DNA of 64,000 bases. Origin: a virus. Where the stretch lies: positions 32,001 through 96,000 of IMG/VR virus record IMGVR_UViG_3300049811_000692; one strand, written 5' to 3'. The position numbers and the translations under genes were made by a program. Positions 31,156 through 56,387 of the stretch are shown piece after piece. Position 1 is the stretch's first letter; every line of letters starts with the position of its first letter. The notes under the pieces are model-generated. The model was not told the DNA's origin, did not search any database, and saw only the letters and a program-made list of their open reading frames with translations.

Positions 31156-31764
31156 TCAGTCGGGGAGCTCGATGTCGCCCCACGCTTCGGGGCCTTCTTC
31201 GTGAACCTCGATGCTGTCGCGATCGATGTCGAAGGAGGCCTCGTCGATCTGGCGGCAGACGTTGTGGAGCATCATCTCGAGCAGCTGCTCGGTGAAGGCC
31301 GGATTTGTGCGGATGGCGTCAAGGACGCGACGCTCGGCCTCCTTCTCGGAGAAGGCGCGCACCAGCACGAAGGCTTCCGGCTGGAAGCCATCGTCGGCCA
31401 TCACGCGCACCGTGTAGGGGATGCGAAGGTCGTCCTCGTCATCTTCAGCGCCGGCACCCTCGAACGGGTCCGTGCCGTCGCCCCCGATCCCGTCCTTGCG
31501 GGCGATCGCGGAGATGTCGTGCAGGTGGACCGAGGGGCCGATGAAGCTCTGCATCGAATGCCCCTCGAGCCGAGGGTCGTGCGAGGCGACGTAGTGCAGG
31601 ACCGCCTCGTCCGCGCGCTGGTAGCGCACGACGAGCGGCTGCGGAGACAGCACGCACGCCAGGGCGGCGAGCGTGCCGGCCGGGCAGGCGTTACGGAGGT
31701 AGGACTGGTATGAGCAGCTTCTCCCCGTCGCCGTGACCCGGTCGTAGTAGGTGACCATCAGCAT
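31156..31764 (-). CDS. cassette gene, acidic hypothetical
   Basis: Preceded by leader copy 1. Confidence 0.7.
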   Translation of the reverse strand: MLMVTYYDRVTATGRSCSYQSYLRNACPAGTLAALACVLSPQPLVVRYQRADEAVLHYVASHDPRLEGHSMQSFIGPSVHLHDISAIARKDGIGGDGTDPFEGAGAEDDEDDLRIPYTVRVMADDGFQPEAFVLVRAFSEKEAERRVLDAIRTNPAFTEQLLEMMLHNVCRQIDEASFDIDRDSIEVHEEGPEAWGDIELPD

Positions 31765-31837
31765 GGCGGATGGGTCTCTTCGGCCCCGGGCAGGGGGCCG
31801 CGACTGGCCGCCCCAGGGTGGGGCGGCGGAACCCGGC

Positions 31838-32176
31838 TCACGCCGGGCTGGAGGGCTTCTTCAGCGCCTCCCGCAGCTTCTCGCCGCGCAGGATGGTGGT
31901 GGAGCCCGGCAGGATCCCCTCGAAGGGCACGGGATGGGGCGGGAACTCGCCCGGGCGGTCCTTGTAGGCCGACCGAATCAGGTCGCCGAGCTCGTTCATG
32001 GAGTAGAGCCCCATGGGCCCGTGCAGCTGGCTGAGCATCCAGTGCGGGGGGTTCTTGTTGCCGCGGCCGTAGGCCTTGCGGAGCCGCTTCATCGCCTGGG
32101 CGCGGGAGATGCCGCGCGCCCAGACATTCGGCCCGACGGCGAAGTAGCCGTACACCGTCTTCTTGGGTTCGGTCAT
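31838..32176 (-). CDS. cassette gene, hypothetical
   Basis: Start MTEPKK follows leader SD. Confidence 0.75.
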   Translation of the reverse strand: MTEPKKTVYGYFAVGPNVWARGISRAQAMKRLRKAYGRGNKNPPHWMLSQLHGPMGLYSMNELGDLIRSAYKDRPGEFPPHPVPFEGILPGSTTILRGEKLREALKKPSSPA

Positions 32177-32269
32177 GGTGGTGTCCTTCGTCCCGATCAG
32201 GGGACGCGACTGGCTGCCCCAGGACGGGGCGGCGGGGCCCGGGCGCTGAAGCGCCACGGGCAGGGAGGA

Positions 32270-32803
32270 TCACCGCAGGGGAGGCGTCAGATCGACGGCG
32301 GGCGGCTCGAGGCCGGGCGGCGCGAGGTGCGGCACGCAGGTCTGGTACCGGTAGTCCTGCACCGCGTTGTACTCGTCGGAGCCGACCTCGGGCATGCAGA
32401 TGCCCTCGTCGAAGTCGGCCGCCAGCTCCAGCACCGCGCGTCCGTGTCGAAGGAGGCGGGGGTACTGGTTGTCGCTCAGGTAATCGTCGGGATCGACATA
32501 GACGCGCCCGCGCATGGTGTAGCGGCCGTCGTCCTCGAAGTGGGCTTCCTTCCCCCAGACGAGCGCCGAGGTCATGAACCCGGCGGCGTCGTTGTCGAGG
32601 ATGTGGAAGCCGCCGTTGCTCTGGCTCTCGGCGCTGAGCTCGTCGATCGCGTCGTAAAGGGCGCGCTCCTGGCCGTGGCCGGGGTTGCGGGAAATGTACT
32701 CGTCCATCTGCTCCCGCAGCCAGCGCCGCCCCGCGTTGTTGGCCGTGATGATGAGCTGGTCGCCCTTCTCCTCGAAGAGGATCTGCGGGCAGTTCTTCGT
32801 CAT
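32270..32803 (-). CDS. cassette gene, hypothetical
   Basis: Leader SD. Confidence 0.75.
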   Translation of the reverse strand: MTKNCPQILFEEKGDQLIITANNAGRRWLREQMDEYISRNPGHGQERALYDAIDELSAESQSNGGFHILDNDAAGFMTSALVWGKEAHFEDDGRYTMRGRVYVDPDDYLSDNQYPRLLRHGRAVLELAADFDEGICMPEVGSDEYNAVQDYRYQTCVPHLAPPGLEPPAVDLTPPLR

Positions 32804-32893
32804 CGGGGTGGTCCTTCGTCCCGATCAGGGGACGCGACTGGCCGCCTCACGCTGAGGCGGCGGGGGCCAGGGCGCGCGGGGCGCCGCTGGCAA

Positions 32894-33313
32894 TCACACG
32901 CCGGGATCCTCGCGGCGTTGCCGCAAGTACAGGCGGGCGTCCGGGCCCAACCTCCTCAGGATCTCTTCGCCAACCTCGGCGACTTCCTTGTGGACGTTGA
33001 TGAGGCGCTCGAACTGAGCCCGCGCCGCGGCTTCGGACCGCTCAATCGTCTCGTTCAGCCAATCTAGTGCAGTGGGCGTGGGGGCGTCTTCGTCGGCAGC
33101 CGCGGCTCCTCGGGTGTTCACGAGCAGCATGACCGCGCGGCAGGCAGCCAGCCACTCCAAGGTCACGCCAAGCAGCCGGCTGGCCACGTATTCGCGACCT
33201 TCCGCCTTGAGCGCGGCGATCGTGTAGATCAGGCTTGATGACGCCATGGTAGGCGATATGTCGAGTAGAGCTTCGGCCCGAAGCGCCATGTCGTAATCAA
33301 TCTCGGCAGGCAC
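32894..33313 (-). CDS. cassette gene, hypothetical (lower GC)
   Basis: GTG start after leader SD. Confidence 0.7.
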   Translation of the reverse strand: MPAEIDYDMALRAEALLDISPTMASSSLIYTIAALKAEGREYVASRLLGVTLEWLAACRAVMLLVNTRGAAAADEDAPTPTALDWLNETIERSEAAARAQFERLINVHKEVAEVGEEILRRLGPDARLYLRQRREDPGV

Positions 33314-33404
33314 GGTGGTCTCCTTCGCCCCGATCAGGGGGCGCGACTGGCCGCCTCACGCTGAGGCGGCGGGGCCAGAGCGTAGCGGCGCTCTGGCGAG
33401 GTGA

Positions 33405-33662
33405 TTAGGCCGTGGCGGGCTCGATGAAGCCCTCGTCGTTCTCGGGGTCGGGCGGGAGGTAGGCGTCGTAGGGGTTCTGGTCGGAGACCAGGTGCCCGAA
33501 CGGCACGAACTCGCACTCGTCGCCTGAGCGGTTGATCGCCACGATCACGTAGCGGGGATTGCGGGTCTTGGCGTCCAGGCACTCGAGCAGCGCCAGGTGG
33601 CCGGAGGCCGCCGCGCGCAACATCGTGTTGAAGTTGGCGCGGAGGGGCTCGGGGATGGCCAT
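33405..33662 (-). CDS. cassette gene, DUF6117-like
   Basis: MAIPE..RANF.T.LRAA..G.LALLEC.DA.T...RYVI...PFG.L...NPYDAY.PP. Confidence 0.7.
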   Translation of the reverse strand: MAIPEPLRANFNTMLRAAASGHLALLECLDAKTRNPRYVIVAINRSGDECEFVPFGHLVSDQNPYDAYLPPDPENDEGFIEPATA

Positions 33663-33754
33663 AGGGCTTGGTCCTTCGCCCCGATCAGGGGGCGCGACTG
33701 GCCGCCTCACGCTGAGGCGGCGGGGAGCAGGGCGCAACGGCGCCCCGCTCGGTG

Positions 33755-34141
33755 TCAGGCGGGCGCAGCGGTCATCCAGGCGATCGGCGAGACTTCCTCC
33801 TCGGGGAGAGAGGCCTGCTCGTCGCGCGCGATGACGTGCTCGCGGATGTGGGCCGGGAGGTCGAGCCATCGGACGCGCTCGCGGGCGTAGCGCTGCCGAT
33901 ACTGGGAGAACTCCCAGAGCTGCATCTCGCCCATCAGGCTGACGCCCTGCGGGTGCTCGGGCCCATCCGACATGCCCAGGAAGGCCACCCAGCCTTCGCG
34001 GCCGGCGGCCCACTCCTTGCCGGTGAAGAACACCGTGTAGCGCTCACCCTCGTTGCGACTGTCGAAGCAGTCGCAGATGAAGGCGGGCGCGTTTTCGAGC
34101 CACCGCGCGCGGGCCCGCTTCGGGAGGCGGTGTTTTCTCAT
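33755..34141 (-). CDS. cassette gene, hypothetical
   Basis: ERYTVFF...MS..P.HPQGV...W.DLP motif. Confidence 0.75.
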   Translation of the reverse strand: MRKHRLPKRARARWLENAPAFICDCFDSRNEGERYTVFFTGKEWAAGREGWVAFLGMSDGPEHPQGVSLMGEMQLWEFSQYRQRYARERVRWLDLPAHIREHVIARDEQASLPEEEVSPIAWMTAAPA

Positions 34142-34233
34142 CGGGGTAGTCCTTCGCCCCGATCAGGGGGCGCGACTGGCCGCCCCGGGACAGGGCGGCG
34201 GGGCCAGGGCGCACGGGGCGCCGCTGGCGGGCA

Positions 34234-34464
34234 CTACAGCCGCCGCCGCGAGAGCAGCGGCGGGTAGGTGGTGGGGAACCCGGGCGGGCGAGGCTCGCGC
34301 CAGGCGTCCGGGTCAGGCCAGGCGACGTAGATGTTCGTCGGCCAGGTGGCGCGCCAACCGGCGGCCTCGGCTTCCGCCGCCTCCTTCGTCGGAAGCGGCT
34401 CGGCCGACGCAAAGCGGTCGGTGGTCTGGTTCCAGACGCACCAGGCCTCTCGGATGTCCGTCAC
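34234..34464 (-). CDS. small hypothetical, translationally coupled (no leader)
   Basis: GTGA overlap with upstream stop; AWCVWN motif shared with 52701-53339. Confidence 0.6.
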   Translation of the reverse strand: MTDIREAWCVWNQTTDRFASAEPLPTKEAAEAEAAGWRATWPTNIYVAWPDPDAWREPRPPGFPTTYPPLLSRRRL

Positions 34465-34880
34465 TGCGGCTCGATCTTCGCCGCGACGTGGATGTGGAAC
34501 ATCCCGGGCGTGCTCATCTCGGTGATCGTCTCGCCCGTCCGCGCCATGCGGCCGAGGAAGATGACCAGCTTGCGGACGGTCTCGACGTCGATCTTCACGT
34601 CCACGATGTCCTCGCCGTACTCGCCGCCCTCCTCGGGGCCGGTGATGACGCCGATGCCGGAGAGCGGCTGCTGGTTGAGGGCCTGCAGCGAGAAGAAGTT
34701 GGCGGGGCCGTAAAGCAGCCCCTCGTCATCCACCCACAGGTAGTCGCCGGTCGGGAAGCGCCCGGCGCAGGTCATGGGGCGGTTGTCCCAGAAGGCGCAG
34801 ATCTCGCGGTGCGTGACCTGGCCGGGAAGTTCCACGACCTCCACCGTCTCGGTGTTGGGGTCGATCTTGATGATCTTCAT
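34461..34880 (-). CDS. cassette gene, DUF3846-like
   Basis: MKIIKIDP...LWVDDEGLL...PLSG.GVITG. Confidence 0.7.
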   Translation of the reverse strand: MKIIKIDPNTETVEVVELPGQVTHREICAFWDNRPMTCAGRFPTGDYLWVDDEGLLYGPANFFSLQALNQQPLSGIGVITGPEEGGEYGEDIVDVKIDVETVRKLVIFLGRMARTGETITEMSTPGMFHIHVAAKIEPQ

Positions 34881-34973
34881 GGTGGTGTCCTTCGTCCCGA
34901 TCAGGGGACGCGACTGGCCGCCCCAAGACGGGGCGGCGGGTGCCCGGGCGCCGAAGCGCCGCGGGCGGGAGGG

Positions 34974-35537
34974 TCAGGCGGCCTCCTCCTCGTCATCCGG
35001 CTCCGCGAGCTCCGCGGGGAGCTCGTTGAGCGGGTAGGTGCCGTGGAGGTGGAGCGGCTCGTTCATGTCCCGGTAGCGGTTGCCCTCGTCGGGCTTCGTC
35101 CGGGGCCAGCGGCTCACGTACACCTCGAGCACCTCGTCATCGAGGTTCACGAGGTAGCCGTACTCGGCGTCGTAGCCGGCCATGCCGGCGTCGAGATTGG
35201 AGGCTATCGCCCCGCGCACCAGGCGCTTGACGATGGTCCCCTGGTCGCGCCGGAAGAACGAGTAGGCGTCGCTGCCAGTGCTGACGCTGCGGTCGTGCGC
35301 GTCGGCGCCCCAGCGGCTCACCATCTCCGGGGTGATCGGGTCATTCCACGAGATCTGCTCGACCTTGGTCGCGAGCTCCCGGAGCCGGTCGATCCAGCCG
35401 TCGCCGTGCAGCTCGCGGAACTCGGTGAGCTCCTTGAGGATGGTGGCGCCGACGCCGGCGAAGTAGCCGTCGAACTGGTTGTAGGCGATCTTGTCCGTGC
35501 CGCCGATGCGGACGCCGGTGAGGGATCGGGTACCCAT
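34974..35537 (-). CDS. cassette gene, hypothetical
   Basis: MGTR.L.G...YNQFDGY..G.G...EYGY.VNLD...LEVY motif. Confidence 0.75.
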   Translation of the reverse strand: MGTRSLTGVRIGGTDKIAYNQFDGYFAGVGATILKELTEFRELHGDGWIDRLRELATKVEQISWNDPITPEMVSRWGADAHDRSVSTGSDAYSFFRRDQGTIVKRLVRGAIASNLDAGMAGYDAEYGYLVNLDDEVLEVYVSRWPRTKPDEGNRYRDMNEPLHLHGTYPLNELPAELAEPDDEEEAA

Positions 35538-35636
35538 GGTAGGGGTGGTCCTTCGTCCCCAGGCAGGGGAACGCGACTGGCCGCCTCACGTTGAGGCGGC
35601 GGGTGCGGAGGGCGCCGAAGCGCCCCCCGCGGTGCG

Positions 35637-36833
35637 TCAGATCGTCACCTTGTTCATCAAGGCGCCGGCCTTCCGCTCGAGCGCGACGCGCTCGTCCTGG
35701 TGCGGGATGTCACGGGCCATGGCGGTGATGCCCTGGACCATGTCCCAGATCGAACGGGCCGGGCGGCCCTCGGTCTGCATGACGCTCTCCAGGATCGCCT
35801 TGGCGCCCGACTTCGAGAAGTCGCGCTGCCCGAGCCACTCGAGCGCCTCGTCGTCGGTCTTGGCGACGGTGAGACGCTTCGCCTCGATGGCCTTGCGGGC
35901 CACCGCACTCGCGGAGATGTTGGAGAAGTCCTTGAGGGTCGGCATCACCTCCCCCCGGAAGCGATCCGGGAGGCCAGAGGTGTGACGGAGCGCGATCTCG
36001 TTGCGCCCTTCGACTCCCCACAAATTGCGATTCAGGCAAATCGCCCGAAGGTACATCGTCACCACCCTGAGGGAGGCAGCGCCGACCTCTGAGTTGGAGA
36101 CCATGAAGCCCGGGAAGATCAGATCGGGGTCGCCGTTGTCGAGCTTGCCGATCTCGATCGGGTACTGGTCCCGACACAGGAAGAGGAACACGTCGCGATC
36201 GCTCGCGTAGAGCGTGGTGCTCTGCTTCGAGAGATAGTCGGGGTTCGGATCGTAGGTCCCCGTGGTCCAGTCGATGACACCCGGCACCTTCCAGGTGCCG
36301 TCCTCGGTGATGGCCTTGACCGCCTCGACCACGTCCGCGTCCCACACCCGCCCGTAGGTGGGCGAGGTGATGGCGCGCAGCTCGGTGCGGCCCTCCGGCG
36401 TCGTGGTCTTCAGGAGCTTGATGCTCTCCTCGGATGAACGGCTGAGGAGATCCTGAACGACGGCGGGGGCGAGCCGGGTGCGTCGCAGATAGCGGGCCGG
36501 GAAGTCGATGTGCTGACACAGCTGGCTGAACGACCAGTGCGTCGGGTAGCCCTCGCCATCGGGGGCGAGGATCCGCATGGTGTCGGCCGAGAGGTTCTCG
36601 TCGGCCAGCACCCTCAGCGACCGCGTCCCGTAGGTGTTGACGATCGAGTTCTCCATGCGCGCCTTCACGGCGTCCAGGAGGTCGTCCAGCGACAGAAAGC
36701 GCTGGTCGTCAGGGCGGGTGTACCACTGGGAACTCAGGGACCCGTCGAGGGCCCCGCGCCGCACGTCCACGCGCCGCGCCCCCGAGGGGGCGGAGGGCAG
36801 GGTGGCCGCGGGCGGGATGATGGTATCCGGCAT
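35637..36833 (-). CDS. cassette gene, DUF932-family protein
   Basis: SSQW..RPDDQRFLSL, LRAITSP.YGR.WD, YASDRDVF.FL, NSEVG, C.NRNLWG. Confidence 0.8.
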   Translation of the reverse strand: MPDTIIPPAATLPSAPSGARRVDVRRGALDGSLSSQWYTRPDDQRFLSLDDLLDAVKARMENSIVNTYGTRSLRVLADENLSADTMRILAPDGEGYPTHWSFSQLCQHIDFPARYLRRTRLAPAVVQDLLSRSSEESIKLLKTTTPEGRTELRAITSPTYGRVWDADVVEAVKAITEDGTWKVPGVIDWTTGTYDPNPDYLSKQSTTLYASDRDVFLFLCRDQYPIEIGKLDNGDPDLIFPGFMVSNSEVGAASLRVVTMYLRAICLNRNLWGVEGRNEIALRHTSGLPDRFRGEVMPTLKDFSNISASAVARKAIEAKRLTVAKTDDEALEWLGQRDFSKSGAKAILESVMQTEGRPARSIWDMVQGITAMARDIPHQDERVALERKAGALMNKVTI

Positions 36834-36936
36834 AGTGCCGTGGTCCTTCTTCGGCCCCAGGCAGGGGGCCGCGACTGGCCAGAGCAATACGCTCCGGCGG
36901 AAGTGCCCGCGGCACAGAGGCGCCGCGGGCGGGCGA

Positions 36937-37449
36937 TCAGCCGGGCGGCAGATCGATGGGGTGGCCAGCTCCCTTCAGCAGGTCGGCGATGCGCTGGGCG
37001 ACCAGCGCCGGATTGTCCAAGTCGCCGAGGTAGGTGCCGGGGTTGAACAGTCGGGCCGTGTCGTAGCGGCCGAGCTCAAAAAACCGCCCGCACGCCTCGA
37101 AGTCCTGTTCCGGATCCACGCCGAACGGGCGTTCCGCGGAGCGTGTTTCCGGCTCGGCATACAGGACCGAGATGTCGGCGGCCCGGTTGAAGCCGAGCTT
37201 GACCAGCTCGCGCGCAGACCGGATCGGGGTCCAGTTGAAGTTCTCCCAGAGCGCCATGCAGAACCCCTGGCTCTGGAACCAGGGGTCGAGGGAGGCGTGT
37301 CCTGCCGCGCAGGCGGCGGTGCCGCATTCGTTGGCCTTGCCCCACGACCCCATGTTGAGGTCCAGGAAGAAGGGAGGGGCGGGAGCCTTCTCGGCCTCCG
37401 CGAGCGTCAGCATGATCGCCCGGAGGCGCTGGAGTGCTTCCACGTTCAT
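36937..37449 (-). CDS. cassette gene, paralog 1 of CGT.ACA.G family
   Basis: ECGTAACAAGHA.LDPWF. Confidence 0.75.
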   Translation of the reverse strand: MNVEALQRLRAIMLTLAEAEKAPAPPFFLDLNMGSWGKANECGTAACAAGHASLDPWFQSQGFCMALWENFNWTPIRSARELVKLGFNRAADISVLYAEPETRSAERPFGVDPEQDFEACGRFFELGRYDTARLFNPGTYLGDLDNPALVAQRIADLLKGAGHPIDLPPG

Positions 37450-37542
37450 GGTGGGTGTCCTTCGTCCCCAGGCAGGGGGACGCGACTGGCCGCCTCGATG
37501 GGAGGCGACGGGGCCCGGGCGCCGAGGCGCCGCGGGCGAGGG

Positions 37543-38076
37543 TCAGGTGAGGCCCGCCTCCCGGCGAGCCTCGGCCTCCAGCTTGAGCCGGGCGAGCAGC
37601 TTCTCGACGCGGTTCAGGACGGCCTGCGGCGAGCCGAGTTCCGAGCGCTCGTATTCGTCGGGATCGAAGAGGTAGCGCGCGCGGGGCTCGGGGATACCGA
37701 AGAAGCTTGCCGCCGCGTGGTAGTTGAGGGGCCACTCGTAGGGATTGATCTCGGCGAGCTCCTCTTCGGGCGGGCCGCTCGGCGTTTTGTGGATCGGCAT
37801 GACGGTGCGCCCCATGCAGGTGACTTTCGCGAGCTCTTCCACAGTGAAAGCCGCCGTGCCGCGCGCGGTGACCAGAAAGAGCCCGCGCTCCTGGAACCAG
37901 GGGTCCAGGCAGGCGAGGCCGACCGCGCAGGCGGTGGTACCGCATTCAGAGCGGCCATGAGCCCAGAGATCCATCCGGAGGTGGATGATGGGTGGCGAGA
38001 GCGCGTCCTGCGCCTCAATCTGCTGCGCAAGCAGGTCGCAGAGCCGTTCGAGCGCCTCGATGTTGGGTGTAGTCAT
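37543..38076 (-). CDS. cassette gene, paralog 2 of CGT.ACA.G family
   Basis: ECGTTACAVGLACLDPWFQERG. Confidence 0.8.
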   Translation of the reverse strand: MTTPNIEALERLCDLLAQQIEAQDALSPPIIHLRMDLWAHGRSECGTTACAVGLACLDPWFQERGLFLVTARGTAAFTVEELAKVTCMGRTVMPIHKTPSGPPEEELAEINPYEWPLNYHAAASFFGIPEPRARYLFDPDEYERSELGSPQAVLNRVEKLLARLKLEAEARREAGLT

Positions 38077-38168
38077 CGTGGTGTCCTTCGTCCCCAGGCA
38101 GGGGGACGCGACTGGCCGCCTCGATGTGAGGCGGCGGGGCCCGGGCGCCGAGGCGCCGCGGGCGAGGG

Positions 38169-38705: not shown

Positions 38706-38816
38706 CGTGGGTGGTCCTTCGTCTCCAGGCAGGGGGACGCGACTGGCCGCCTCGATTCGAGGCGGCGGGAACAACCGGCTGGGGTGGCACAAAGGGCTGC
38801 ACACCAGATGTGGTGG

Positions 38817-42439: not shown

Positions 42440-42484
42440 ACCTCCTTGTGTCCGATCACACGGAGATGTGGAAGAGGGAAGAGA

Positions 42485-48965: not shown

Positions 48966-49061
48966 GGTGGGTGTCCTTCGTCCCCAGGCAGGGGGACGCG
49001 ACTGGCCGCCCCAGGGCGGGGCGGCGGGGCCAGGGCGCGCGAGGCGCCGCTGGCGGGCGAG

Positions 49062-49712
49062 CTACAGGGGCTCGATGTTGTCGATGATGGTGGCGTCGCC
49101 AGCGTAGCCGCCGATCCACTCGCCGTCGGGATCGCCCTCTTCGAGCATCTCCTCGGCGAGCTGCCGGGCGTGCATGGCGCTGCGCGCCTCGATCTTCACC
49201 TTCAGGGTCTCCCAGCGCTTGCGCGAGAAGGTCACCGCGTAGGTGCCGACCTCCTCGGCCGCATCGGGCGGAAGCTCGATGGGCGGAAGGGGCGCCAGAT
49301 CGACTTTGCTCTCGGCGAGGAGGAGTGCGATGGCGGCCGGCCCTCGCTCCAGGGTGGCCGCCATGGTGGCCAGACCGATGGTCGGGTTGCCGTCGTGGTC
49401 GGCCGTGTAGGCGACCGGATCAGCGCCGGGACGGTAGATCGTCACGGCCGGCCCGTACTCGTAGCCAGGGCCAGTGTGGACCCTTGCGTGCAGCTGAAAC
49501 CGCACGAGCAGATCCGTCAGCGAGTTCCATGTGCCGTAGTTCACCTCGTCCTGGTCAATCAGGATGTGCTCCTCGTCGGAGGAGCCATCGATGACCTCCT
49601 CGATGTTCGAGAAGGTGACGGGCTCCCTGTCGAGGAGGTCTCGCAGGCCGGTAAGGGCGTCCGCCGAAATGGGGCCGCCGATGGTGACGTTGACGGTGCA
49701 GCGATCACCCAT
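49062..49712 (-). CDS. cassette gene, hypothetical
   Basis: Start MGDRC after leader. Confidence 0.75.
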   Translation of the reverse strand: MGDRCTVNVTIGGPISADALTGLRDLLDREPVTFSNIEEVIDGSSDEEHILIDQDEVNYGTWNSLTDLLVRFQLHARVHTGPGYEYGPAVTIYRPGADPVAYTADHDGNPTIGLATMAATLERGPAAIALLLAESKVDLAPLPPIELPPDAAEEVGTYAVTFSRKRWETLKVKIEARSAMHARQLAEEMLEEGDPDGEWIGGYAGDATIIDNIEPL

Positions 49713-49788
49713 GGGGGTGTCTCCTTCGTCCCCAGGCAGGGGGACGCGACTGGCCGCCCCAGGGCGGGGCGGCGGGAGGCGGATATGC

Positions 49789-49823
49789 AAAAGCCCCCAC
49801 CCGCGGGGGCGGATGGGGGCTTT
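49789..49823 (-). terminator. intrinsic terminator-like hairpin inside array 2
   Basis: AAAGCCCCCATCCGC/GCGGGTGGGGGCTTTT. Confidence 0.6.
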
Positions 49824-49827
49824 CGGG

Positions 49828-49998
49828 TCAGGCGGCCGCGTCGAGCTCGTTCTGGAGCTTGGCGTTGCGCTCGCGCAGGCGGGCGACGGCGCGGGCCGGC
49901 TCACCCCGGGGGTGGACCATGTCGTACACGATCACGCCGCCGATTGCGGTCATGGCGCCGTAGAAGCCGGCGACCAGGAAGTTGGTGGCGATGCCCAT
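49828..49998 (-). CDS. cassette gene, small TM + coiled-coil peptide
   Basis: MGIATNFLVAG... after leader. Confidence 0.6.
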   Translation of the reverse strand: MGIATNFLVAGFYGAMTAIGGVIVYDMVHPRGEPARAVARLRERNAKLQNELDAAA

Positions 49999-50196
49999 GG
50001 TGGGGTTGTCCTTCGGCCCAGTCAGGGGCCTCGACTGACCACCCCACAGCGGGGCGGCTGGTCGGCCCCCCGCTCGACCGCCGCCCGAGGGAGCGGCAGG
50101 AGCAGGGGGCCCTTTCGCGCCTCGACCGGAGGCGCACGACGGGCCGCCTCGGTGGGGCGGCAAGGTGCCCAGCTGCCGGCTGGGCTCGGGGTCGGT

Positions 50197-50394
50197 TCAG
50201 CCGACCAACTTCGGGGCCTGCCCGCGCGGGGGCTGGCGGGCCGCGATCTCGTTCTGGAGCCGCTGGGCGCGGCGCTCGAGGGCGAGCTGCTGGCCGACAC
50301 GGAAGGCGGCGGCGCCGATGCCGACGCCCGCGACGACCGTGAAGCCGATCACGGCCGCCTGAGCGGCCTTTTCCGAGACGAACGCGAGGTTCAT
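50197..50394 (-). CDS. cassette gene, small TM + coiled-coil peptide
   Basis: 65 aa after degenerate leader. Confidence 0.6.
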   Translation of the reverse strand: MNLAFVSEKAAQAAVIGFTVVAGVGIGAAAFRVGQQLALERRAQRLQNEIAARQPPRGQAPKLVG

Positions 50395-50600
50395 GGGGAA
50401 TGTCCTTCGGCCCAGACAGGGGCCTCAGCTGGCCGCCCCAGGGTGGGGTGGCTGGGCCCTCGCCGTCGGAGGGGTCCGGCGGCGAGGGGGAGGGTAGTAG
50501 GGGTAGTGGTTCGATCCCCGGCCGGGGGATCTCGACGGGCCACCCCAGCATGGGGTGGCGCCAGACCGCCCGGGCACGAGGCCCAGGCGATTGGAAAGGG

Positions 50601-50771
50601 TCAGGCGGCCTTCTTGGTCTCCTCGACCGCCTTCGCGGCGCGGCGCTTGGCGAGCGCCTGGCGGGCGGCCGGGATGCCGTGCGTGACGGTGAGGGTCACG
50701 CCGACGCCGGCGGCGACGCCGATGGCGTACGGGAGGGCGGGGCGAACGAAGGCGAGGGCGTTCTGGAACAT
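50601..50771 (-). CDS. small TM peptide, first gene of array 2 operon
   Basis: GGAG SD; MFQNALAFVRPALPYAIGVAAGVGVTL...KKAA*; AT-rich promoter-like TTGCCA-N17-TAATAAT at ~50822-50852. Confidence 0.6.
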   Translation of the reverse strand: MFQNALAFVRPALPYAIGVAAGVGVTLTVTHGIPAARQALAKRRAAKAVEETKKAA

Positions 50772-50861
50772 GATGTTCTCCAGTCCAATCAGAGAGGGGT
50801 AATTCCCTGCTCTGTAGGTGTATTATTACGCCTAAATACGTGTCATGGCAAGTAAAAAGTG

Positions 50862-50899
50862 AAGAAACCCAAGAAAAACGGGTGTTTTTCTTGGGTTCT
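50862..50899. terminator. bidirectional terminator
   Basis: AACCCAAGAAAAAC/GTTTTTCTTGGGTT inverted repeat. Confidence 0.7.
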
Positions 50900-50905
50900 G
50901 GGCCG

Positions 50906-51373
50906 TCAGAAGGGCAACAGTGCCTCTTCAGGTGGCGGGGAGATGTGGCCGCTCACGCGAAGCCGGATGGTGTTCTGAGCTTCGAGCAGGCCGTAAAAGG
51001 CGTGATCGAAGCTGCGGATGAAGTCCGGATTCAGGTGTGTGAGCGCCTGATCGTAGCAGGGGCTCACACGGTTAGTGGCGATGGTCATTGCCTGGGGTGA
51101 GCAGGCGAAGAGCGCCGCCGTAACCGCGTCGCGACGCCGAACGACCATCCCGAAGAACGGGATGAGGTCGAGGTCGAAGTTCTCCAGGGTGGCCGAGGGC
51201 TCCTCGTCGCGGCCGACGTCCAGGTGGTAGAGGCTCTCGTCGAGCCGGCCGAGCATGTTGTGGTGGAGCTCGCGGAGTTCCATGCCGCAGATTGACCGGT
51301 AGTTGGGGGGCGCGAGGCCGCAGAACGGCGGCTCGGGTTCGTCGGGCACGTAGCCCGAATCAAAGGGGGCCAT
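50906..51373 (-). CDS. stand-alone hypothetical with degenerate leader hairpin
   Basis: CTGCCC-TCGCC-GGGCAG-AAGGA before ATG; promoter TTGCTT-N16-TATATT at ~51438-51465. Confidence 0.65.
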   Translation of the reverse strand: MAPFDSGYVPDEPEPPFCGLAPPNYRSICGMELRELHHNMLGRLDESLYHLDVGRDEEPSATLENFDLDLIPFFGMVVRRRDAVTAALFACSPQAMTIATNRVSPCYDQALTHLNPDFIRSFDHAFYGLLEAQNTIRLRVSGHISPPPEEALLPF

Positions 51374-51464
51374 GATGGCGTCCTTCTGCCCGGCGAGGGC
51401 AGCGGGATGCGGCCCCTGAGACGCAGGGCGATGAGCCAATATACCACAACGGACTGAAAAAGCA

Positions 51465-51501
51465 AGAAAACCCGCCGCAACCGAAGTCGCGGCGGGGTCT
51501 T
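51465..51501 (-). terminator. terminator ending array 3
   Basis: CCCGCCGC/GCGGCGGG stem + TTTTCTT on minus strand. Confidence 0.7.
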
Positions 51502-51503
51502 GG

Positions 51504-52040
51504 TCACAGCTCGCGCAGGAGCGCGACGAGCCGGTGAAGGGCGTCGATCGCGTGGTTGTGCTCGGCCCAATCCTCGCTGCGGCTCTCGCTCGCGGCCTGC
51601 TCCACCAAGGCGCGCTGCTGTTGGGCGACCATCTCCAAGATCAGGGTGACGCCTGCGCGGTGGATGGAGTGGGATCCCATGATGAGCAGGAGCTGGATGG
51701 CGATGTCCTGGTTGCGCTCGCCGAGGGCGCCAGTGTCGGCGTCCTGGTCCACCAGGCGAGGGACGAGATCGCGCAAGGCCTGCAGCACGGAGGCGGGATA
51801 GGTGGACCGGAGCAGCTGCTCCAGTGCAAGCGTGCAGAAGAGCGTGTCGCCGGCGGCGAACAGGCGGTGGTGGCGACCGTCCCAGGCCCAGCGAACCGGG
51901 ATCTGCCGGTTGTCCTGCAGGGTGAGGGTGGCAGGAAACGGATCGTTGCCGGCGCGGATGTGCTGGTCGGCGTCCACCTTGTCGGCGGGGATGCGGCACG
52001 GAATGTGCCCGTACAGCCATCCGTTGATCGTCGAGGTCAT
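51504..52040 (-). CDS. cassette gene, hypothetical
   Basis: Start MTSTING after leader. Confidence 0.7.
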   Translation of the reverse strand: MTSTINGWLYGHIPCRIPADKVDADQHIRAGNDPFPATLTLQDNRQIPVRWAWDGRHHRLFAAGDTLFCTLALEQLLRSTYPASVLQALRDLVPRLVDQDADTGALGERNQDIAIQLLLIMGSHSIHRAGVTLILEMVAQQQRALVEQAASESRSEDWAEHNHAIDALHRLVALLREL

Positions 52041-52131
52041 GGCGGTGATCTCCTTCGTCCCCAAGCAGGGGGACGCGACTGGCCGCCCCAGGGCGGGGCG
52101 GCGGGTCCCTGGCCTTGCGGCCAGGGGGTGC

Positions 52132-52302
52132 TCAGCGCCGTCGCCGGCGCGGGCGCTTGTACCAGGAGCGATCCCGGACGACCCGCACGAGCGGCGGGGC
52201 GGCCAGGTTCTCCCAGCGCAGCATCCGCGCCGCCGCGGCGGCGTCGCGCCTCGTGCGGTAGCAGGTCGGCGCCAGAAGGCCATCGACGCGCAGGGTGTAC
52301 AT
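52132..52302 (-). CDS. small basic peptide, translationally coupled
   Basis: TGATG overlap. Confidence 0.5.
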   Translation of the reverse strand: MYTLRVDGLLAPTCYRTRRDAAAAARMLRWENLAAPPLVRVVRDRSWYKRPRRRRR

Positions 52303-52607
52303 CACGCACCCCCCTGGTGGCGCGCCTTGAGGAGCTCGTAGCTCCAAGACGTGATGCCGATGGGGGTGAGGCCGATGTCGAGCAAGGTCTCGTTCATCGC
52401 GAGAACCTCGCCCTCAATCTCGGCCGTGCGGATGATGTGCCCGCCCGTGATGCAGGGCGTCGCGCAGGTGCGGATGCGCTCGAAGAGCTCCTGGGCCTGG
52501 TGGCCGAGGACCATCGCGGGGTCGCACAGCACGAGGCTGCCCCAGGGGGTGCGGCGCCCCAGCATGGGCGTGCGGGTGGGCTCTGAGAAGTCGAGGTGCA
52601 GGGCCAT
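52302..52607 (-). CDS. cassette gene, hypothetical
   Basis: Leader SD. Confidence 0.7.
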   Translation of the reverse strand: MALHLDFSEPTRTPMLGRRTPWGSLVLCDPAMVLGHQAQELFERIRTCATPCITGGHIIRTAEIEGEVLAMNETLLDIGLTPIGITSWSYELLKARHQGGA

Positions 52608-52700
52608 AGTGGTGTCCTTCGTCCCCGAGCAGGGGGACGCGACTGGCCGCCCCAGGACGGGGCGGCGGGTGCCCGGGCGCCAAAGCGCCGCGGGCGGGGG

Positions 52701-53339
52701 TCAGGAGGCGGGGGCCGCCAGTTGGGCGACCGGCAGCTCTGCCGGCTCCTGGTAGAGCTTCCCGTCGTCGGGGTTCACGTACCAGTTGGCCGGCCCGAAG
52801 AGCCGGGCGCCCTTGGCGAGCATGTCCCCGATCTCCTGGGGCCAGTCCCCGTCCCAGAAGCCGCAGCCGTGGCCTTCGCGGGTGTACCAGAAGTCACGGC
52901 CGGCGTGCTCCCAGACCGTGTCGGTGGGGGACCCGGGCTTGTGGGTGTGCTCGGCGCTGGCGATGCGCGCGGCGTAGTGGGTCAGGAAAACCTCGCAGTC
53001 GGCCGTGATGGCCTTGTGCAAGGTCGAGCTGATCATCTCCCAGGTCCAAGTCTCGTCTTCGGGGCAGGCCGAGAAGAGCGCCGCGGCCACGTAGTCGCCT
53101 CGGAACTCCTGAAGCTTCGGGTGCGGGTTGAGCGTGGACGGCGCGCCGTGCGGCTTGAGGTCGCCCATGCGGAAGTCGGGGTCGCGGCGGACCTCGTACT
53201 GGCCGGCGGTCCACAGGCGGCGCCACTTGTCGGCCCAGGCCATGGCTTCCTCCTTCGTCAGGTAGGGGCCGCTGGCCAGCATGCCGGCGGTGTTGTTCCA
53301 GACGCACCAGGCCGGCTCGAGGTCGGGGGTGTTGGTCAT
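52701..53339 (-). CDS. cassette gene, hypothetical
   Basis: AG.DFWYTR.GHG.GFWD.DW motif. Confidence 0.75.
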   Translation of the reverse strand: MTNTPDLEPAWCVWNNTAGMLASGPYLTKEEAMAWADKWRRLWTAGQYEVRRDPDFRMGDLKPHGAPSTLNPHPKLQEFRGDYVAAALFSACPEDETWTWEMISSTLHKAITADCEVFLTHYAARIASAEHTHKPGSPTDTVWEHAGRDFWYTREGHGCGFWDGDWPQEIGDMLAKGARLFGPANWYVNPDDGKLYQEPAELPVAQLAAPAS

Positions 53340-53430
53340 GGTGGTGTCCTTCGCTCCGATCAGGGAGCGCGACTGGCCGCCTCACGTCGAGGCGGCGGGG
53401 CCCGGGCGCCAAAGCGCCGCGGGCGGGCCT

Positions 53431-54090
53431 TCACCCGCGGATGGCGGGCTCGGGGTAGTGGAGGGGGCGCGCGCCGGTGATGCGGACCAGGAGGCGGCTT
53501 TCGCCGCTCTCTGAGCCGGAAAACGAAAGGGCGTTGGCGACGGCCGCTTCGCGCGAGAAGTACGGGCCGCGGGGGCTCACGCGGTCGAAGCCGCCGCTGT
53601 CCTCCGTGGCGTCCCAGTACCAGCCCGTCGGCGTGGCATCGGCATCCCACCAGACGGTGACGTCCAGGGTGGGGCGCTCGACGCGCACCTCCTCGGGATT
53701 GAGGAGGCCGAGGCGGTTGGCCACGAACTCGGGAGGCGCGCCGAGCGCCTGGGCGCAGATCATGAGCCGCGCCGTCTGGGCGATCTCCTCGTGGTAGTCG
53801 CTGTAGAAGACGACCACGGGGTCGTTCGGGGCGTAGTTTCCGCCCAGCAGGCGGTGCGCCACGTAGCGCGCCCCGTCATCGGTCAGGCGGTTCTGCAGGA
53901 AGACCTGGCAGCCTTCGCAGTGCGAGGGGTAATCGCACTCGTCGTCCGTCGTCGGGCCCTTCGGCCAGTCGTCGGAGTCGTAGCTGCTCTCGTCGCCTTC
54001 ATCGACGTGCTTGGGCATGGGCAGGTGGCGCTTGATGTGGTCGGTGCAGTCCTCGCACCAGAGCGTGGCGCGGTAGGTGTACACGTCCAT
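53431..54090 (-). CDS. cassette gene, Cys-cluster hypothetical
   Basis: WCEDC...YDSDDWPK...HCEGC...LT.DG..YV. Confidence 0.75.
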   Translation of the reverse strand: MDVYTYRATLWCEDCTDHIKRHLPMPKHVDEGDESSYDSDDWPKGPTTDDECDYPSHCEGCQVFLQNRLTDDGARYVAHRLLGGNYAPNDPVVVFYSDYHEEIAQTARLMICAQALGAPPEFVANRLGLLNPEEVRVERPTLDVTVWWDADATPTGWYWDATEDSGGFDRVSPRGPYFSREAAVANALSFSGSESGESRLLVRITGARPLHYPEPAIRG

Positions 54091-54184
54091 CGTGGATGTC
54101 CTTCGTCCCCGAGCAGGGGGACGCGACTGGCCGCCTCACGTCGAGGCGGCGGGTGCCCGGGCGCCGAAGCGCCGCGGGCGGGGG

Positions 54185-55129
54185 TTACTCCTCGCGGACG
54201 GAGGTGATCTCGGGCTCGCTCTCGGTGCCGGAAATCAGATCCCAGTCGAGATCGCCGAGCTCGTCGTTGTCGTCCATCTCGCAGACGATGTTCTCGGCCT
54301 CCTCGCGGGAGGAGGCCGTGACCATCATGGTGGTCTCCTCGGCGACGGTGCGCCGCAGGCGAACGCGGTACTCGCGCTGCACGCGGTCGGTTTCGTCGCG
54401 GTAGGCGATGGTCATATCGCACCATTTGATCGCGCCGGCATCGCCGGCGACGGGCGGGATCTCGTAGATCTTGAGCGGCCAGTTGCGCGGGCCGACGCTC
54501 CAGTACTTGCGCCAGGCGCGGATCACGCCCGGCATGTCGCCCTTCTCCGCCCGGACGAGCAGATCGTATTCAGAGCCGTCGTCGATTTCGGAGCCGGCGT
54601 AGATCGCGGAGTCGTCCGACACGCCGCGGACCAGGTAGAGGGTCGTGAGCGGCTCGGGCGTCTCCGCAGGCGGCGCCACGGCGGGCGCAGCCTCCGCGGG
54701 AGGCGGGTTGGCAGGGAAGCGCCGCACCGCCTCCTCCACGAAGCCGAGGGCCTGGGAATGGCCGGTGCGGCCCCAGTGGGCCCGCGCCTGCTCCACGGTG
54801 AAGTTCCGGCAGCCGGCGCAGATATGCAGGCCGTCCCGCATGGGGATGGCCCAGAAGACGTAGCCGCGATCGTCCATGCCGAGCCGGTGATGCTGGAGGT
54901 GCGGCTGGTGCGTGTTGATGCAGACGCGCTCCGTCACCATCAGGCCCGGCGGGATCTCGCGGATCGTCGTGGCGACATAGAGGGCGCCCTGGACCGTGAG
55001 GTCGGCGGGCAAGATCTCGATGCCGGTGTCGAGCGTATCGAGGGTGGTTGTGATCAAGGCGCCGACCGGCAGACCCGAGGTCCGCAGAAGTTCTCGCGCG
55101 GTAGATCCGGCGTAGCAGTTCTTGGTCAT
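54185..55129 (-). CDS. cassette gene, multi-domain mosaic hypothetical
   Basis: LP..LTV.G.L repeats, AGCR.FT..QA..HW, acidic C-terminal domain. Confidence 0.75.
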   Translation of the reverse strand: MTKNCYAGSTARELLRTSGLPVGALITTTLDTLDTGIEILPADLTVQGALYVATTIREIPPGLMVTERVCINTHQPHLQHHRLGMDDRGYVFWAIPMRDGLHICAGCRNFTVEQARAHWGRTGHSQALGFVEEAVRRFPANPPPAEAAPAVAPPAETPEPLTTLYLVRGVSDDSAIYAGSEIDDGSEYDLLVRAEKGDMPGVIRAWRKYWSVGPRNWPLKIYEIPPVAGDAGAIKWCDMTIAYRDETDRVQREYRVRLRRTVAEETTMMVTASSREEAENIVCEMDDNDELGDLDWDLISGTESEPEITSVREE

Positions 55130-55221
55130 GGTGGTGTCCTTCGTCCCCGAGCAGGGGGACGCGACTGGCCGCCCCAAGACGGAGCGGCGGGGCCAGGGCG
55201 CCGGGGCGCCGCTGGCGGGGG

Positions 55222-55473
55222 TCACGCGGGCTCAATAGCTTCGATGTGGTGTGCCCCCAACACGATCCCGTAGTAGCGGGCGTCGTGCAGAAGGAGGCCC
55301 TGTGCCTTTGGGTCGATCCAACCAAGCTCGACCACATGGAAGCATCCGGCTGTTGATCCGGTCCTGATGGGCCGGCAGCGCGTGTGGCGGGGGATCACAA
55401 CGTCGTATTGTAGATCGGAGCTGGATCGCCCCCATGTGAAGCGAAGCTCCTCGCGGGTCCGATAGGTGGTCAT
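55222..55473 (-). CDS. small hypothetical, translationally coupled (lower GC)
   Basis: TGATG overlap; HDA.YYGI motif. Confidence 0.6.
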   Translation of the reverse strand: MTTYRTREELRFTWGRSSSDLQYDVVIPRHTRCRPIRTGSTAGCFHVVELGWIDPKAQGLLLHDARYYGIVLGAHHIEAIEPA

Positions 55474-55799
55474 CACCGAAACCCGTGCGCGGAGCCGAGC
55501 TGGCCGTCGAGCATTCGGACGGCGCCGAGGTCGGCCATGCGCCAGTTAGCGTCGGGCACCTCGTGATGGAGGCGGCGCGTCGCGTCTGCGGCTCGCCGGT
55601 TGTAGGCCTGGTAGGCGCGGTCGGCGACAGGGCCAAACCTCATCGGGTCGTAGCGCACGGCGTTTGGGCCGATGTGGCGCACCGACTCCAGGGCGGCCGC
55701 GAGGAGGCGCAGGTTGATGGTGCAAGAGTACGACCAGCGCTTGTACGCGGCGTCGATCTCCAGGTCGGTCTCCATCGGCTGGAGGCCTTCGATGGCCAT
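55473..55799 (-). CDS. cassette gene, hypothetical
   Basis: Start MAIEGL after leader. Confidence 0.7.
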   Translation of the reverse strand: MAIEGLQPMETDLEIDAAYKRWSYSCTINLRLLAAALESVRHIGPNAVRYDPMRFGPVADRAYQAYNRRAADATRRLHHEVPDANWRMADLGAVRMLDGQLGSAHGFR

Positions 55800-55893
55800 G
55801 GTGGGTGTCCTTCGTCCCCAGGCAGGGGGACGCGACTGGCCGCCTCGAGGTGAGGCGGCGGGTGCCCGGGCGCCAAAGCGCCGCGGGCGGGGG

Positions 55894-56310
55894 TCACGCG
55901 GCGGCGGGCCGCGGGTAGAGCAGCTCGAGCGGGTACTCGCGCAGCAGCACCTCATGGAACGTCTCGCCGATGTAGTCGGCGTTCTCGCTCTCCTCGCTCG
56001 TGTCCGGGCGCATCAGCTCGAGCGTCAGCGTGCGGACGAAGCACGGTCGGGCGATCACGTAGAAGCGCTCGGTCGGTTCGTAGAGGCCGCTTTCGCCCAT
56101 GCGTCGGTACGAGGTGCTGAACGTCAGTTTCGTCGCGCTTGAGCTGTCGAGGTCGAACTCGGTGCCGGCGTCGAAGCCGCTGCCTGAGGGCAGGTACTCC
56201 CGCGCTATGTAGGCGGCGCGCTCCGCGTGCATGGAGGCCATGACGTTGAGGGAGCGGTGGTAGGCGTCGGCTGTGCCGGCGAGCGCGCGGTAAAGCGGCG
56301 TGGTTCGCAT
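55894..56310 (-). CDS. cassette gene, hypothetical (first of array 3)
   Basis: LPSGSGFD.G...KL.F...M.E.G.Y motif. Confidence 0.75.
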   Translation of the reverse strand: MRTTPLYRALAGTADAYHRSLNVMASMHAERAAYIAREYLPSGSGFDAGTEFDLDSSSATKLTFSTSYRRMGESGLYEPTERFYVIARPCFVRTLTLELMRPDTSEESENADYIGETFHEVLLREYPLELLYPRPAAA

Positions 56311-56387
56311 GGTGTTGTCCTTCGTCCCCGAGCAGGGGGACGCGACTGGCCGCCCCACGACGGGGCGGCGGGACGCTCGCAGAGACG

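Follow-up and report, generated by a model that had tools for sequence, protein, structure and literature searches.

Introduction

In the early transcript of phage T7, RNase III cuts at a handful of sites, each a single irregular hairpin of at least ~20 bp, and leaves a protective hairpin at the 3' end of the upstream mRNA. In the puf operon of Rhodobacter capsulatus, intercistronic 5' and 3' hairpins and endonucleolytic cuts together define stable mRNA segments. The early region of the Streptomyces phage phiC31 is said to contain terminators without poly-U as well as conserved early promoters and inverted repeats. Here we describe a new variant among the known repeated regulatory cassettes of phage early and accessory regions. 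It is a spacer of ~95 bases with three hairpins (A, B and C) that ends in a ribosome-binding site and heads 32 unrelated small early genes. The 64,000-nucleotide stretch analysed (the window) comprises bases 32001-96000 of a linear 105,428-bp virus contig in IMG/VR (IMGVR_UViG_3300049811_000692; CheckV completeness 91%), and the phage of this window is referred to as G000.

In cluster K mycobacteriophages, many unrelated genes are preceded, a few bases upstream of the start codon, by a Shine-Dalgarno (SD)-containing motif, the 13-bp asymmetric start-associated sequence (SAS) GGGATAGGAGCCC (PMC3203893). Upstream of about half of the SAS copies lies an inverted repeat of variable spacing, termed the ESAS, whose 17-bp imperfect repeats depart between arms in ways that do not support RNA pairing, so that the authors favour DNA binding (PMC3203893). 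These elements occupy the non-structural half of the genome in one orientation, their consensus differs between subclusters, and their function is unexplained (PMC3203893). In T4-type phages, a small composite stem-loop unit (PeSL) that contains a sigma-70 early promoter flanks small ORFans in the hyperplastic early regions, and PeSL-mediated exchange was shown with close phage pairs (PMC2839356, PMC4122927).

The module described here resembles SAS/ESAS in placement, single orientation, restriction to non-structural genes and lineage-specific consensus, and it is absent from the structural half and the rest of its genome. However, the sequences are unrelated and the SAS/ESAS hosts are Actinobacteria, whereas the arms of the module (8 bp and 6-8 bp) carry compensatory changes that keep pairing, and the module is built of three helices, one of them joined to the SD, together with a conserved single-stranded GUCG. 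With PeSL it shares a stem-loop for each small ORFan, hairpin A being present in 30 of the 32 units, and a fast turnover of genes. Its units nevertheless lack sigma-70 hexamers, and in contrast to the close phage pairs in which PeSL exchange was shown, the arrays of the relatives of G000 share only scattered DNA stretches, 65-76% identical, with its own. As in T7, structured elements would lie between the cistrons of a long early transcript, but the module consists of short helices (A ~10 bp, B 8 bp, C 6-8 bp) split by single strands and occurs at 32 sites. The puf operon offers an alphaproteobacterial polycistronic mRNA with segment-defining hairpins, although its hairpins belong to one operon, are not repeated and include no SD-abutting helix that recurs from gene to gene. 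In phiC31, a GC hairpin with no U tract and highly conserved intergenic sequence with a palindrome reportedly stand before many early genes; there the repeats are said to be DNA promoters or repressor operators, and host and sequences are unrelated.

Results

A three-hairpin module recurs between stop and start codons

Matches to the hairpin-B pattern were counted against shuffled sequence, and each copy was then parsed by hand. The pattern occurred 35 times, compared with 2.2 matches expected from the shuffles. When the 105-kb genome was searched for B followed by CAGTCG with at most one mismatch, 27 matches were obtained; every one was on the minus strand and within the window, and the rest of the genome had none. 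Hand parsing yielded 32 full modules in three arrays: 12 with start codons at 31764-38705, 13 at 44277-50394 and seven at 52040-56310, exactly the number and split given in an earlier note on this DNA. A covariance model built from these copies scored all 32 at 64-88 bits. Beyond them, two diverged but working-looking copies and about three relics were recognized.

The order of elements runs from the preceding stop codon through 3-15 nt to hairpin A, CCCC or ACCC and hairpin B (8 bp, 5-nt loop). It continues with CAGUCG, hairpin C (6-8 bp, loop CUGNNN), AAGGA, a G-free and CA-rich spacer of 7-16 nt, and ATG or GTG. The 3' arm of hairpin C is flush with AAGGA, and the consensus ends in ...GGGGNCGAAGGAC(A/C)n-ATG. 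In most copies B lies 57-63 nt from the start codon and 32-36 nt from the preceding stop codon. Each of the 32 copies separates a stop codon from a start codon, in coding-strand orientation, and all are confined to the early arrays. Comparison of the array proteins bore out that unrelated genes are headed by one module: they are mutually unrelated save for a family of three paralogues and one shared N-terminal segment.

The absence of a recognizable family was likewise confirmed by Rfam, where the whole window gave no match at gathering score. At E <= 5, no module-associated match appeared in 43600-56500 (arrays 2 and 3). The known ribozymes considered (hammerhead, twister, pistol, hatchet, hepatitis delta virus-like) and Y RNA were rejected for want of a covariance-model match, and the module found no match in Rfam or in the searchable literature.

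Base pairing is maintained through compensatory change

Across the 32 copies, standard pairs filled 98.7% of the pair cells and compensatory change was seen in five of the 15 pairs. Double-change cells numbered 33, against 8.2 +/- 2.2 in shuffles, and none of 500 shuffles reached 33; in a slid control, in which the partner was shifted by one to three columns, pairing fell to 39-54%. At position 3 of hairpin C the pair was U-A in 15 copies, G-C in nine and C-G in eight, and at position 7 of hairpin B it was C-G in 21, U-A in 10 and G-C in one. Hairpin C was present in at least 10 stem variants, including all of those reported previously (CGU/ACG, CGC/GCG, CGG/CCG and CGCUCC/GGAGCG), and its C-run and G-run were of matching length in 31 of 32 copies. 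The reported variants of B were also recovered, GCCGGAGC/GCTCTGGC at the module of start codon 36833 and GCCGCACC/GGTGCGGC at those of 45544 and 47792. Hairpin A varies widely in sequence and always folds (-14 to -32 kcal/mol, ~10 bp); the C(UUCG)G loop that it had been said to carry often was present in only three of 30 copies. Minimum free energy folding formed A, B and C in almost every copy.

Because copies within one genome share descent, these cell counts exaggerate how many of the events were independent; length covariation and the cross-genome data suffer less from this. Pooling with the copies of a relative, G002, raised compensatory change to eight of 15 pairs at 97.8% pairing, in an alignment that was fitted by the model and leans toward structure. 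Pairing is under selection, and its covariation goes well beyond the shuffled controls. The proposal of one structured module per gene thus holds, and so, in part, does its claim that pairing is preserved in place of sequence, as covariation exceeds both the shuffled and the slid controls.

The 21-bp near-perfect palindrome of hairpin B could alternatively bind a dimeric phage regulator as double-stranded DNA, an operator or roadblock through which the early arrays are silenced or timed. Its 8-bp arms and 5-bp variable centre have classical operator geometry, and the stem is near-invariant within the genome and different between relatives, as if co-evolving with a DNA-binding protein. A CI-like helix-turn-helix (HTH) protein common to G001 and G002 is encoded at 42446-43246 (+), between arrays 1 and 2, and would be the obvious candidate regulator. 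The weak strand asymmetry described below fits as well, and DNA binding is what Pope et al. favoured for ESAS (PMC3203893). However, half-sites read independently would not be expected to change in a symmetric, compensatory manner (from C-G to U-A in 10 copies, to A-U in three, and also to G-C). Nor would a DNA site explain hairpin C, which is asymmetric, covaries among three pair types with matched arm lengths and is joined to the SD, and hairpin A is kept only as structure. In G002, moreover, a conserved U.G at one position of B corresponds to a C.A mismatch on the opposite strand. We regard the operator as unlikely.

Strand asymmetry had been put forward as an argument for RNA. The underlying count in B and C, eight G-U against three A-C imperfect pairs, was correct as stated. 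Only when G002 was pooled in did the argument reach significance, at 15 G-U to four A-C for the coding strand (p ~0.01, one-sided binomial test), and these copies are non-independent, five of the pooled G-U pairs being one and the same position in the G002 copies. The argument did not extend further: internal G-U pairs of hairpin A numbered six in sense and seven in antisense, without strand bias, and the predicted fold of the whole module favoured the antisense strand (-53.6 vs -50.0 kcal/mol), which may reflect its G-richness. A sense-strand folding advantage was accordingly dropped. Predicted accessibility of the SD was 0.55 compared with 0.50 in shuffled leaders (p = 0.011), an effect too small for SD unmasking as the main role. 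A loop-spacer pseudoknot was rejected because the loop sequences are variable and G is missing from the spacer, and a tRNA-like CCA tail after B because it is not kept in relatives.

Modules lie within operons and downstream of predicted promoters

Promoters and terminators were sought by consensus scan for sigma-70 sites and U tracts; the features below are on the minus strand unless indicated. Array 1 (30869-38870) has an AT-rich promoter region at ~38800-38870, upstream of its first hairpin B, and is closed by a canonical U-tract terminator at 30869-30890. Array 2 (43678-50851) begins with the promoter-like site TTGCCA-18-AATAAT at 50851-50822, which a U-tract terminator-like hairpin (50865-50898) immediately precedes; past its last gene, the scan found no U-tract terminator. 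Array 3 (51504-56373) is preceded by the sigma-70-like promoter TTGAAT-17-TACAGT at ~56391-56419, ~18 nt upstream of its first B, and a canonical U-tract terminator (51471-51496) directly follows its last gene. A further U-tract terminator lies at 49793-49810, upstream of the module core 49710-49777. The sigma-70 scan returned one minus-strand site in the stretch of arrays 2 and 3, the one that heads array 2, and it lies outside the modules; in the array 1 stretch it returned no minus-strand site and one plus-strand site, with none inside a module.

Unlike the real terminators of this phage, hairpin A has no U tract in any copy, so the modules are internal to operons. It is missing just in the two promoter-proximal copies, and therefore goes with the end of the preceding gene, while B and C go with the beginning of the next. 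Since the arrays start at promoter-like DNA and the promoter-proximal copies lack A, hairpins B and C lie downstream of the predicted transcription starts.

This arrangement bears on whether each unit is a composite terminator-promoter of the PeSL kind, in which A would terminate, B and the linker would form a phage-specific promoter with CGUCG as an extracytoplasmic function (ECF) sigma-like -10 element, and every gene would be its own transcription unit. A stem-loop followed by a conserved box before each small ORF of a plastic region is indeed the PeSL layout (PMC2839356, PMC4122927). The unit's CGTC resembles an ECF-type -10 element, and CGTCG(A) is the element most widely kept among the relatives. 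On the other hand, the unit has no AT-rich hexamers, the sites of the sigma-70 scan all lie outside modules, no conserved AAC-type -35 element is visible, and the array-leading copies stand immediately downstream of ordinary promoters. Hairpin A lacks a terminator's U tract, and a start inside the unit would leave the covariation of C unexplained. No sigma factor was detected in the genome, nor was a single-subunit RNA polymerase, although the polymerase model matched no control genome either, so its silence is weak evidence. Taken together, we find a terminator-promoter distinctly unlikely.

Related phages carry lineage-specific versions of the module

Relatives were located via the DUF932 gene of array 1 and via the terminase. 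Four from IMG/VR (G001-G004) have structural proteins 35-60% identical to those of G000 and a terminase ~60% identical, and all four carry module arrays. Together with a more distant phage (L100), they hold 6 to ~20 copies each, in lineage-specific versions. G002, a 103-kb provirus from an isolate genome (IMGVR_UViG_2882837327_000005), has six copies that read GUCRCCCC-N5-GGGGYGGC, CCGCCGA or GCGCCCA, a second hairpin, and GAAAGGA or GAAGAGGA; the G000 covariance model detected all six, with E = 4e-11 to 7e-3. In G001, G003 and G004, which have ~15-20 copies each, the main form is rearranged, GCCCCC-[GGGC-N3/4-GCCC]-GUCGANNN-GGGGGC-(A/C)AGGAG, such that the SD-adjacent G-rich arm pairs with the C-run upstream of a small hairpin. 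G003 additionally contains B-CCGUCGA-C-GAAGGGAC copies that the covariance model matched. In L100, at least 10 copies of GAAACC-hairpin-GGGUCG-hairpin(AUYCC loop)-CCUGAGGAG were found.

The design shared by the relatives comprises a small hairpin, single-stranded (C)CGUCG(A) or CCGCCGA, a G-rich arm that adjoins the SD, and a GC hairpin upstream, and the junction of C with the SD is retained in every lineage version. The exact rearranged pattern had 34 matches in IMG/VR, all in the contigs of G001, G003 and G004, with no chance matches elsewhere. The exact G000-type pattern gave single chance matches only in IMG/VR and, among the matches listed, in GTDB genomes; a stricter version of it gave 0 matches in JGI metagenomes. 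Megablast of 12.5 kb against INPHARED phages gave no match. Except for the DUF932 gene, nearly all array genes differ among the relatives. Most of 80 DUF932 loci in IMG/VR are without the module, which is therefore a trait of the arrays of this lineage and not of the DUF932 gene; a tie to that gene as such was ruled out on the same grounds.

These comparisons also bear on the possibility that the units are mainly recombination substrates that shuffle cassettes, by homologous, PeSL-like or attC-like single-stranded DNA hairpin exchange, with the SD merely travelling along. The arrays consist of co-oriented, unrelated and mostly ORFan genes, and relatives whose structural proteins are 35-60% identical share almost no array genes except DUF932. 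Neighbouring modules are more alike than distant ones, identical B loops come in runs, and gene-less relic modules exist. Integron attC sites are similar in being structure-conserved palindromes between co-oriented, unrelated, promoterless ORFs, but the module includes an SD in register with the start codon. The attC family was excluded, as the genome gave no match to the IntI-type integrase model TIGR02249 and the module consensus has no RYYYAAC/GTTRRRY core. The sole integrase (24390-25475), ~5 kb beyond array 1, is an ordinary Phage_integrase match of the tyrosine type. The hairpins are, moreover, perfect, without extrahelical bases; no breakpoint was mapped, the relatives being too diverged; and the fixed distance to the start codon and the C-SD junction would go unexplained. 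Recombination as the main role is in our view very unlikely.

We give still less credence to a selfish intergenic repeat of the repetitive extragenic palindrome (REP) or miniature inverted-repeat type that spread without a function of its own and happens to carry an SD. Many near-identical copies and relics would be expected of such an element. Against it stand the uniform orientation and register to genes, the restriction to early arrays and the lack of a transposase among the proteins scanned (REP-associated RAYT was not specifically searched). The design also persists to ~50% protein identity with lineage-specific sequence, and such conservation across diverged phages argues for selection. 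A selfish repeat thus seems highly improbable.

Other repeats were observed in further DUF932-carrying phages and in relatives. In L079 (5994, 7004, 9957, 12053) and L097 (1056, 2675, 4886, 7247), starts are marked by a repeat of another kind, (C)TACCACGGAG or CTGCCACGGAG, which immediately follows AT-rich, promoter-like DNA and stands 5-8 nt upstream of the ATG. L067 (6714, 7668, 12280, 12752) and L069 (4358, 5222, 8044) have the intergenic repeats CTCAATCAGTCCACG, and AATCACGACTCAATA followed by TTCCCACGGAG. Short tandem arrays that resemble iterons or origin repeats occur in the relatives L046 (5261-5427; 12-bp x4 beside 22-bp x4) and in L045 (18737-18871; ~22-45-bp TTGGGTATCGGTGGG units).

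Individual copies and array genes

Gene calling was based on GC content at third codon positions on the minus strand of 30897-56310. It gave 39 genes, of which 32 are headed by a module, two by a diverged copy, four overlap the upstream stop codon and one follows a promoter. Module cores are listed below with their covariance-model scores and start codons, all on the minus strand.

Array 3 contains seven module-headed genes and two stop-overlapping genes. Its promoter-proximal core at 56308-56373 (87.6 bits, ATG 56310) has no hairpin A, which precedes the cores at 55797-55863 (86.7 bits, ATG 55799; A in the ~35 nt above the end coordinate), 55127-55192 (84.7 bits, ATG 55129) and 54088-54154 (85.8 bits, ATG 54090; A with a UUCG loop). 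The core at 53337-53400 (77.1 bits, ATG 53339) has the C stem CGCUCC/GGAGCG and is followed by those at 52605-52670 (85.7 bits, ATG 52607) and 52038-52106 (84.7 bits, ATG 52040).

In array 2, the promoter-like site is followed by gene 50771-50601, 13 module-headed genes and one stop-overlapping gene. The first core, 50392-50456 (64.2 bits, ATG 50394), has the linker CAGCUG and an A.C mismatch in B; the second, 49996-50062 (64.7 bits, ATG 49998), has two G-U pairs in B; and in the third, 49710-49777 (84.1 bits, ATG 49712), the U-tract terminator at 49810-49793 replaces hairpin A. Further cores lie at 48963-49029 (87.1 bits, ATG 48965), 48467-48533 (69.4 bits, GTG 48469) and 48100-48165 (73.5 bits, GTG 48102). 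B reads GCCGCACC/GGUGCGGC both at 47790-47854 (72.2 bits, ATG 47792; linker CAGUUG) and at 45542-45605 (77.4 bits, ATG 45544). Between these two are the cores at 46993-47058 (83.1 bits, ATG 46995), 46399-46468 (73.3 bits, ATG 46401), with a C stem of 8 bp, and 45912-45977 (67.8 bits, ATG 45914). The array ends with those at 44803-44868 (74.3 bits, ATG 44805) and 44275-44340 (80.6 bits, ATG 44277), the latter with UAGGA as SD.

Array 1 holds 12 module-headed genes, one stop-overlapping gene and one diverged copy. Its promoter-proximal core at 38703-38770 (76.1 bits, ATG 38705) again has no hairpin A. It is followed by cores at 38074-38139 (82.2 bits, ATG 38076), 37447-37513 (80.4 bits, ATG 37449) and 36831-36902 (63.7 bits, ATG 36833), the last of which heads the DUF932-like gene and has the B stem GCCGGAGC/GCUCUGGC. 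The next are at 35535-35604 (79.4 bits, ATG 35537), 34878-34941 (81.0 bits, ATG 34880), 34139-34203 (74.4 bits, ATG 34141) and 33660-33725 (74.2 bits, ATG 33662). The remaining cores are at 33311-33374 (73.6 bits, GTG 33313), 32801-32865 (78.4 bits, ATG 32803), 32174-32237 (75.2 bits, ATG 32176) and 31762-31831 (71.9 bits, ATG 31764), where the SD is AAGAGA.

One diverged copy (31080-31139, 29.2 bits; GCCGGCGC..GCGCCGGC, CCGCU, GCGCCCC..GGGGCG) heads a 57-residue ORF at 31070-30897. The other was taken for a relic at 51381 in the earlier note and is really a diverged, complete-looking two-hairpin leader (51371-51428, 18.5 bits; CCCUG..CAGGG, UGCCC..GGGCA, GAAGGA) of a gene starting at ATG 51373; it lies immediately downstream of a terminator and a promoter-like stretch. 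Relics are located at 50496-50563 (37.8 bits; no SD, no gene; linker CCGUCGA) and 50103-50165 (28.5 bits; linker CCGUCG), both on the minus strand, and the CCGUCG(A) linker of these two is that of the G001, G003 and G004 modules.

The array genes without a module behaved as the earlier note had stated. Four (low ends 34234, 48562, 52132 and 55222) overlap the upstream stop as GTGA or TGATG, and the remaining exception, 50771-50601, is preceded by a promoter-like site. Among the array genes there were nearly no Pfam or PHROGs matches, only DUF932-like, DUF3846, DUF5983 and DUF1281_C. These families are typical of anti-restriction regions and of the leading regions of plasmids and integrative and conjugative elements. 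Three tandem paralogues of 178, 177 and 170 residues (31-57% identical; 36937-38705, minus strand) open array 1 and are the sole gene family within the arrays. In the 76-residue product of the stop-overlapping gene 34234-34464 (-), a 68-residue segment is 43% identical to the N-terminus encoded by gene 52701-53339 (-) of another array. At the head of array 2 are very small hydrophobic ORFs of 56, 65, 56 and 48 residues (50771-49828 and 48965-48819, minus strand), each with one predicted membrane-like segment; three of the four have their own module, while 50771-50601 follows the promoter instead.

The source phage and its host

From its gene content, the source is an uncultured temperate siphovirus, with a window GC content of ~70%. 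Protein annotation identified structural genes for a portal, a MuF-like protein, a prohead protease, a tail tube, a tape measure with a lysozyme domain, and gpL-like and gpJ-like tail proteins. Genes of lysogeny and recombination (the tyrosine integrase, ERF, YqaJ and the CI-like HTH protein) and of replication (DnaB, a replication initiator and a single-stranded DNA-binding protein) were also present; the replication initiator (40626-41675, plus strand; PHROG matches) adjoins DnaB. The best relatives of the portal are Brevundimonas phages (41% identity), and the best named cellular homologues of the DUF932-like array gene are in Rhodovarius, Sphingobium, Rhizorhabdus and Mesorhizobium. These affinities point to a probable high-GC alphaproteobacterial host rather than an actinobacterium, so that the actinophage flavour of the precedents named earlier was off the mark. 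A Ro60-like protein with TROVE and Ro60 vWA domains is encoded at 61748-63235 (-), and no Rfam Y RNA matched at gathering score in the window. A link between the module and this gene was dropped, as G001 and G002 carry modules yet no Ro60 homologue.

Discussion

We consider it probable, if only by a little, that the repeat acts in cis, as a transcribed RNA module between cistrons that serves the stability or processing of mRNA segments and standardizes translation starts. The B-linker-C-SD part is conserved in sequence and structure and A only as a fold, which suggests two roles. Hairpin A, as a GC hairpin, would belong to the 3' end of the upstream cistron and act as a generic protective hairpin, while B, the single-stranded CAGUCG and C would form the 5' leader of the downstream cistron. 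A long early transcript would be split into segments whose 3' ends are shielded by A (and B) and whose 5' ends are shielded by C. The cut might fall in or near (C)CGUCG(A); with a cut in or near GUCG, the upstream segment would end in two hairpins and the downstream one would begin with C before a standard SD, so that every unrelated ORF would receive one and the same ribosome-binding context. The module is uniform within a genome and differs between genomes while the GUCG core is kept, which suggests that a trans-acting factor from host or phage recognizes it, possibly reading B-GUCG-C as a cut or binding site.

Several features favour RNA as the level of action: the register with stop codon, SD and start codon; asymmetric parts that are oriented on the coding strand only; the operon-internal position; the split between A and B-C at promoters; and the joining of C to the SD. 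The earlier note had gone further and proposed a plug-in expression or processing module that makes any captured ORF an autonomous cassette. Its first half stands, since a role in expression or processing at the RNA level best fits a position between stop codon and SD, inside operons, and downstream of promoters where A is lacking. Its second half, with captured ORFs and autonomous mobile cassettes, does not follow, as the relatives are too diverged for breakpoints and no integron-type integrase was found.

A number of points weigh against the RNA module. Read-through transcription of the modules, the positions of RNA ends and any cleavage are all inferred here. Covariation in perfect palindromes fits single-stranded DNA pairing or quasi-palindrome correction equally well, and the asymmetry between strands that would tell RNA from DNA is weak overall and missing from hairpin A; the energy predicted for the entire module even points the other way. 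SD accessibility improves little, and over the initiation region as a whole there is no improvement on shuffled leaders. The helices, at 7-11 bp, are too short for classical RNase III sites, and the single-stranded segments are not AU-rich, unlike usual RNase E sites. No candidate trans-acting factor was identified. A more specific version, in which B and (C)CGUCG(A) form a site cut by a dedicated host or phage endoribonuclease or by an undescribed self-cleaving fold, would yield uniform monocistronic mRNAs with protective hairpin ends and, at the 5' end, C with a standard ribosome-binding site. We advance it tentatively, as a possible but doubtful variant.

The arrays are a rare natural case of standardized expression, in which one structured leader serves dozens of unrelated genes in one genome, and natural variation supports its base pairing through the 32 copies here and five further genomes with lineage-specific versions. 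The mycobacteriophage SAS/ESAS have remained unexplained since 2011, and the module shares their placement yet covaries clearly. If it acts on RNA, it would represent a new class of cis-regulatory RNA absent from Rfam, could offer parts for insulating genes in synthetic alphaproteobacterial operons, and would explain how accessory arrays of fast turnover stay expressible in a 70% GC background. If the cleavage-site reading is true, the module would be nature's equivalent of the synthetic RiboJ and Csy4 insulators, through which this phage clade could express any newly acquired ORF predictably.

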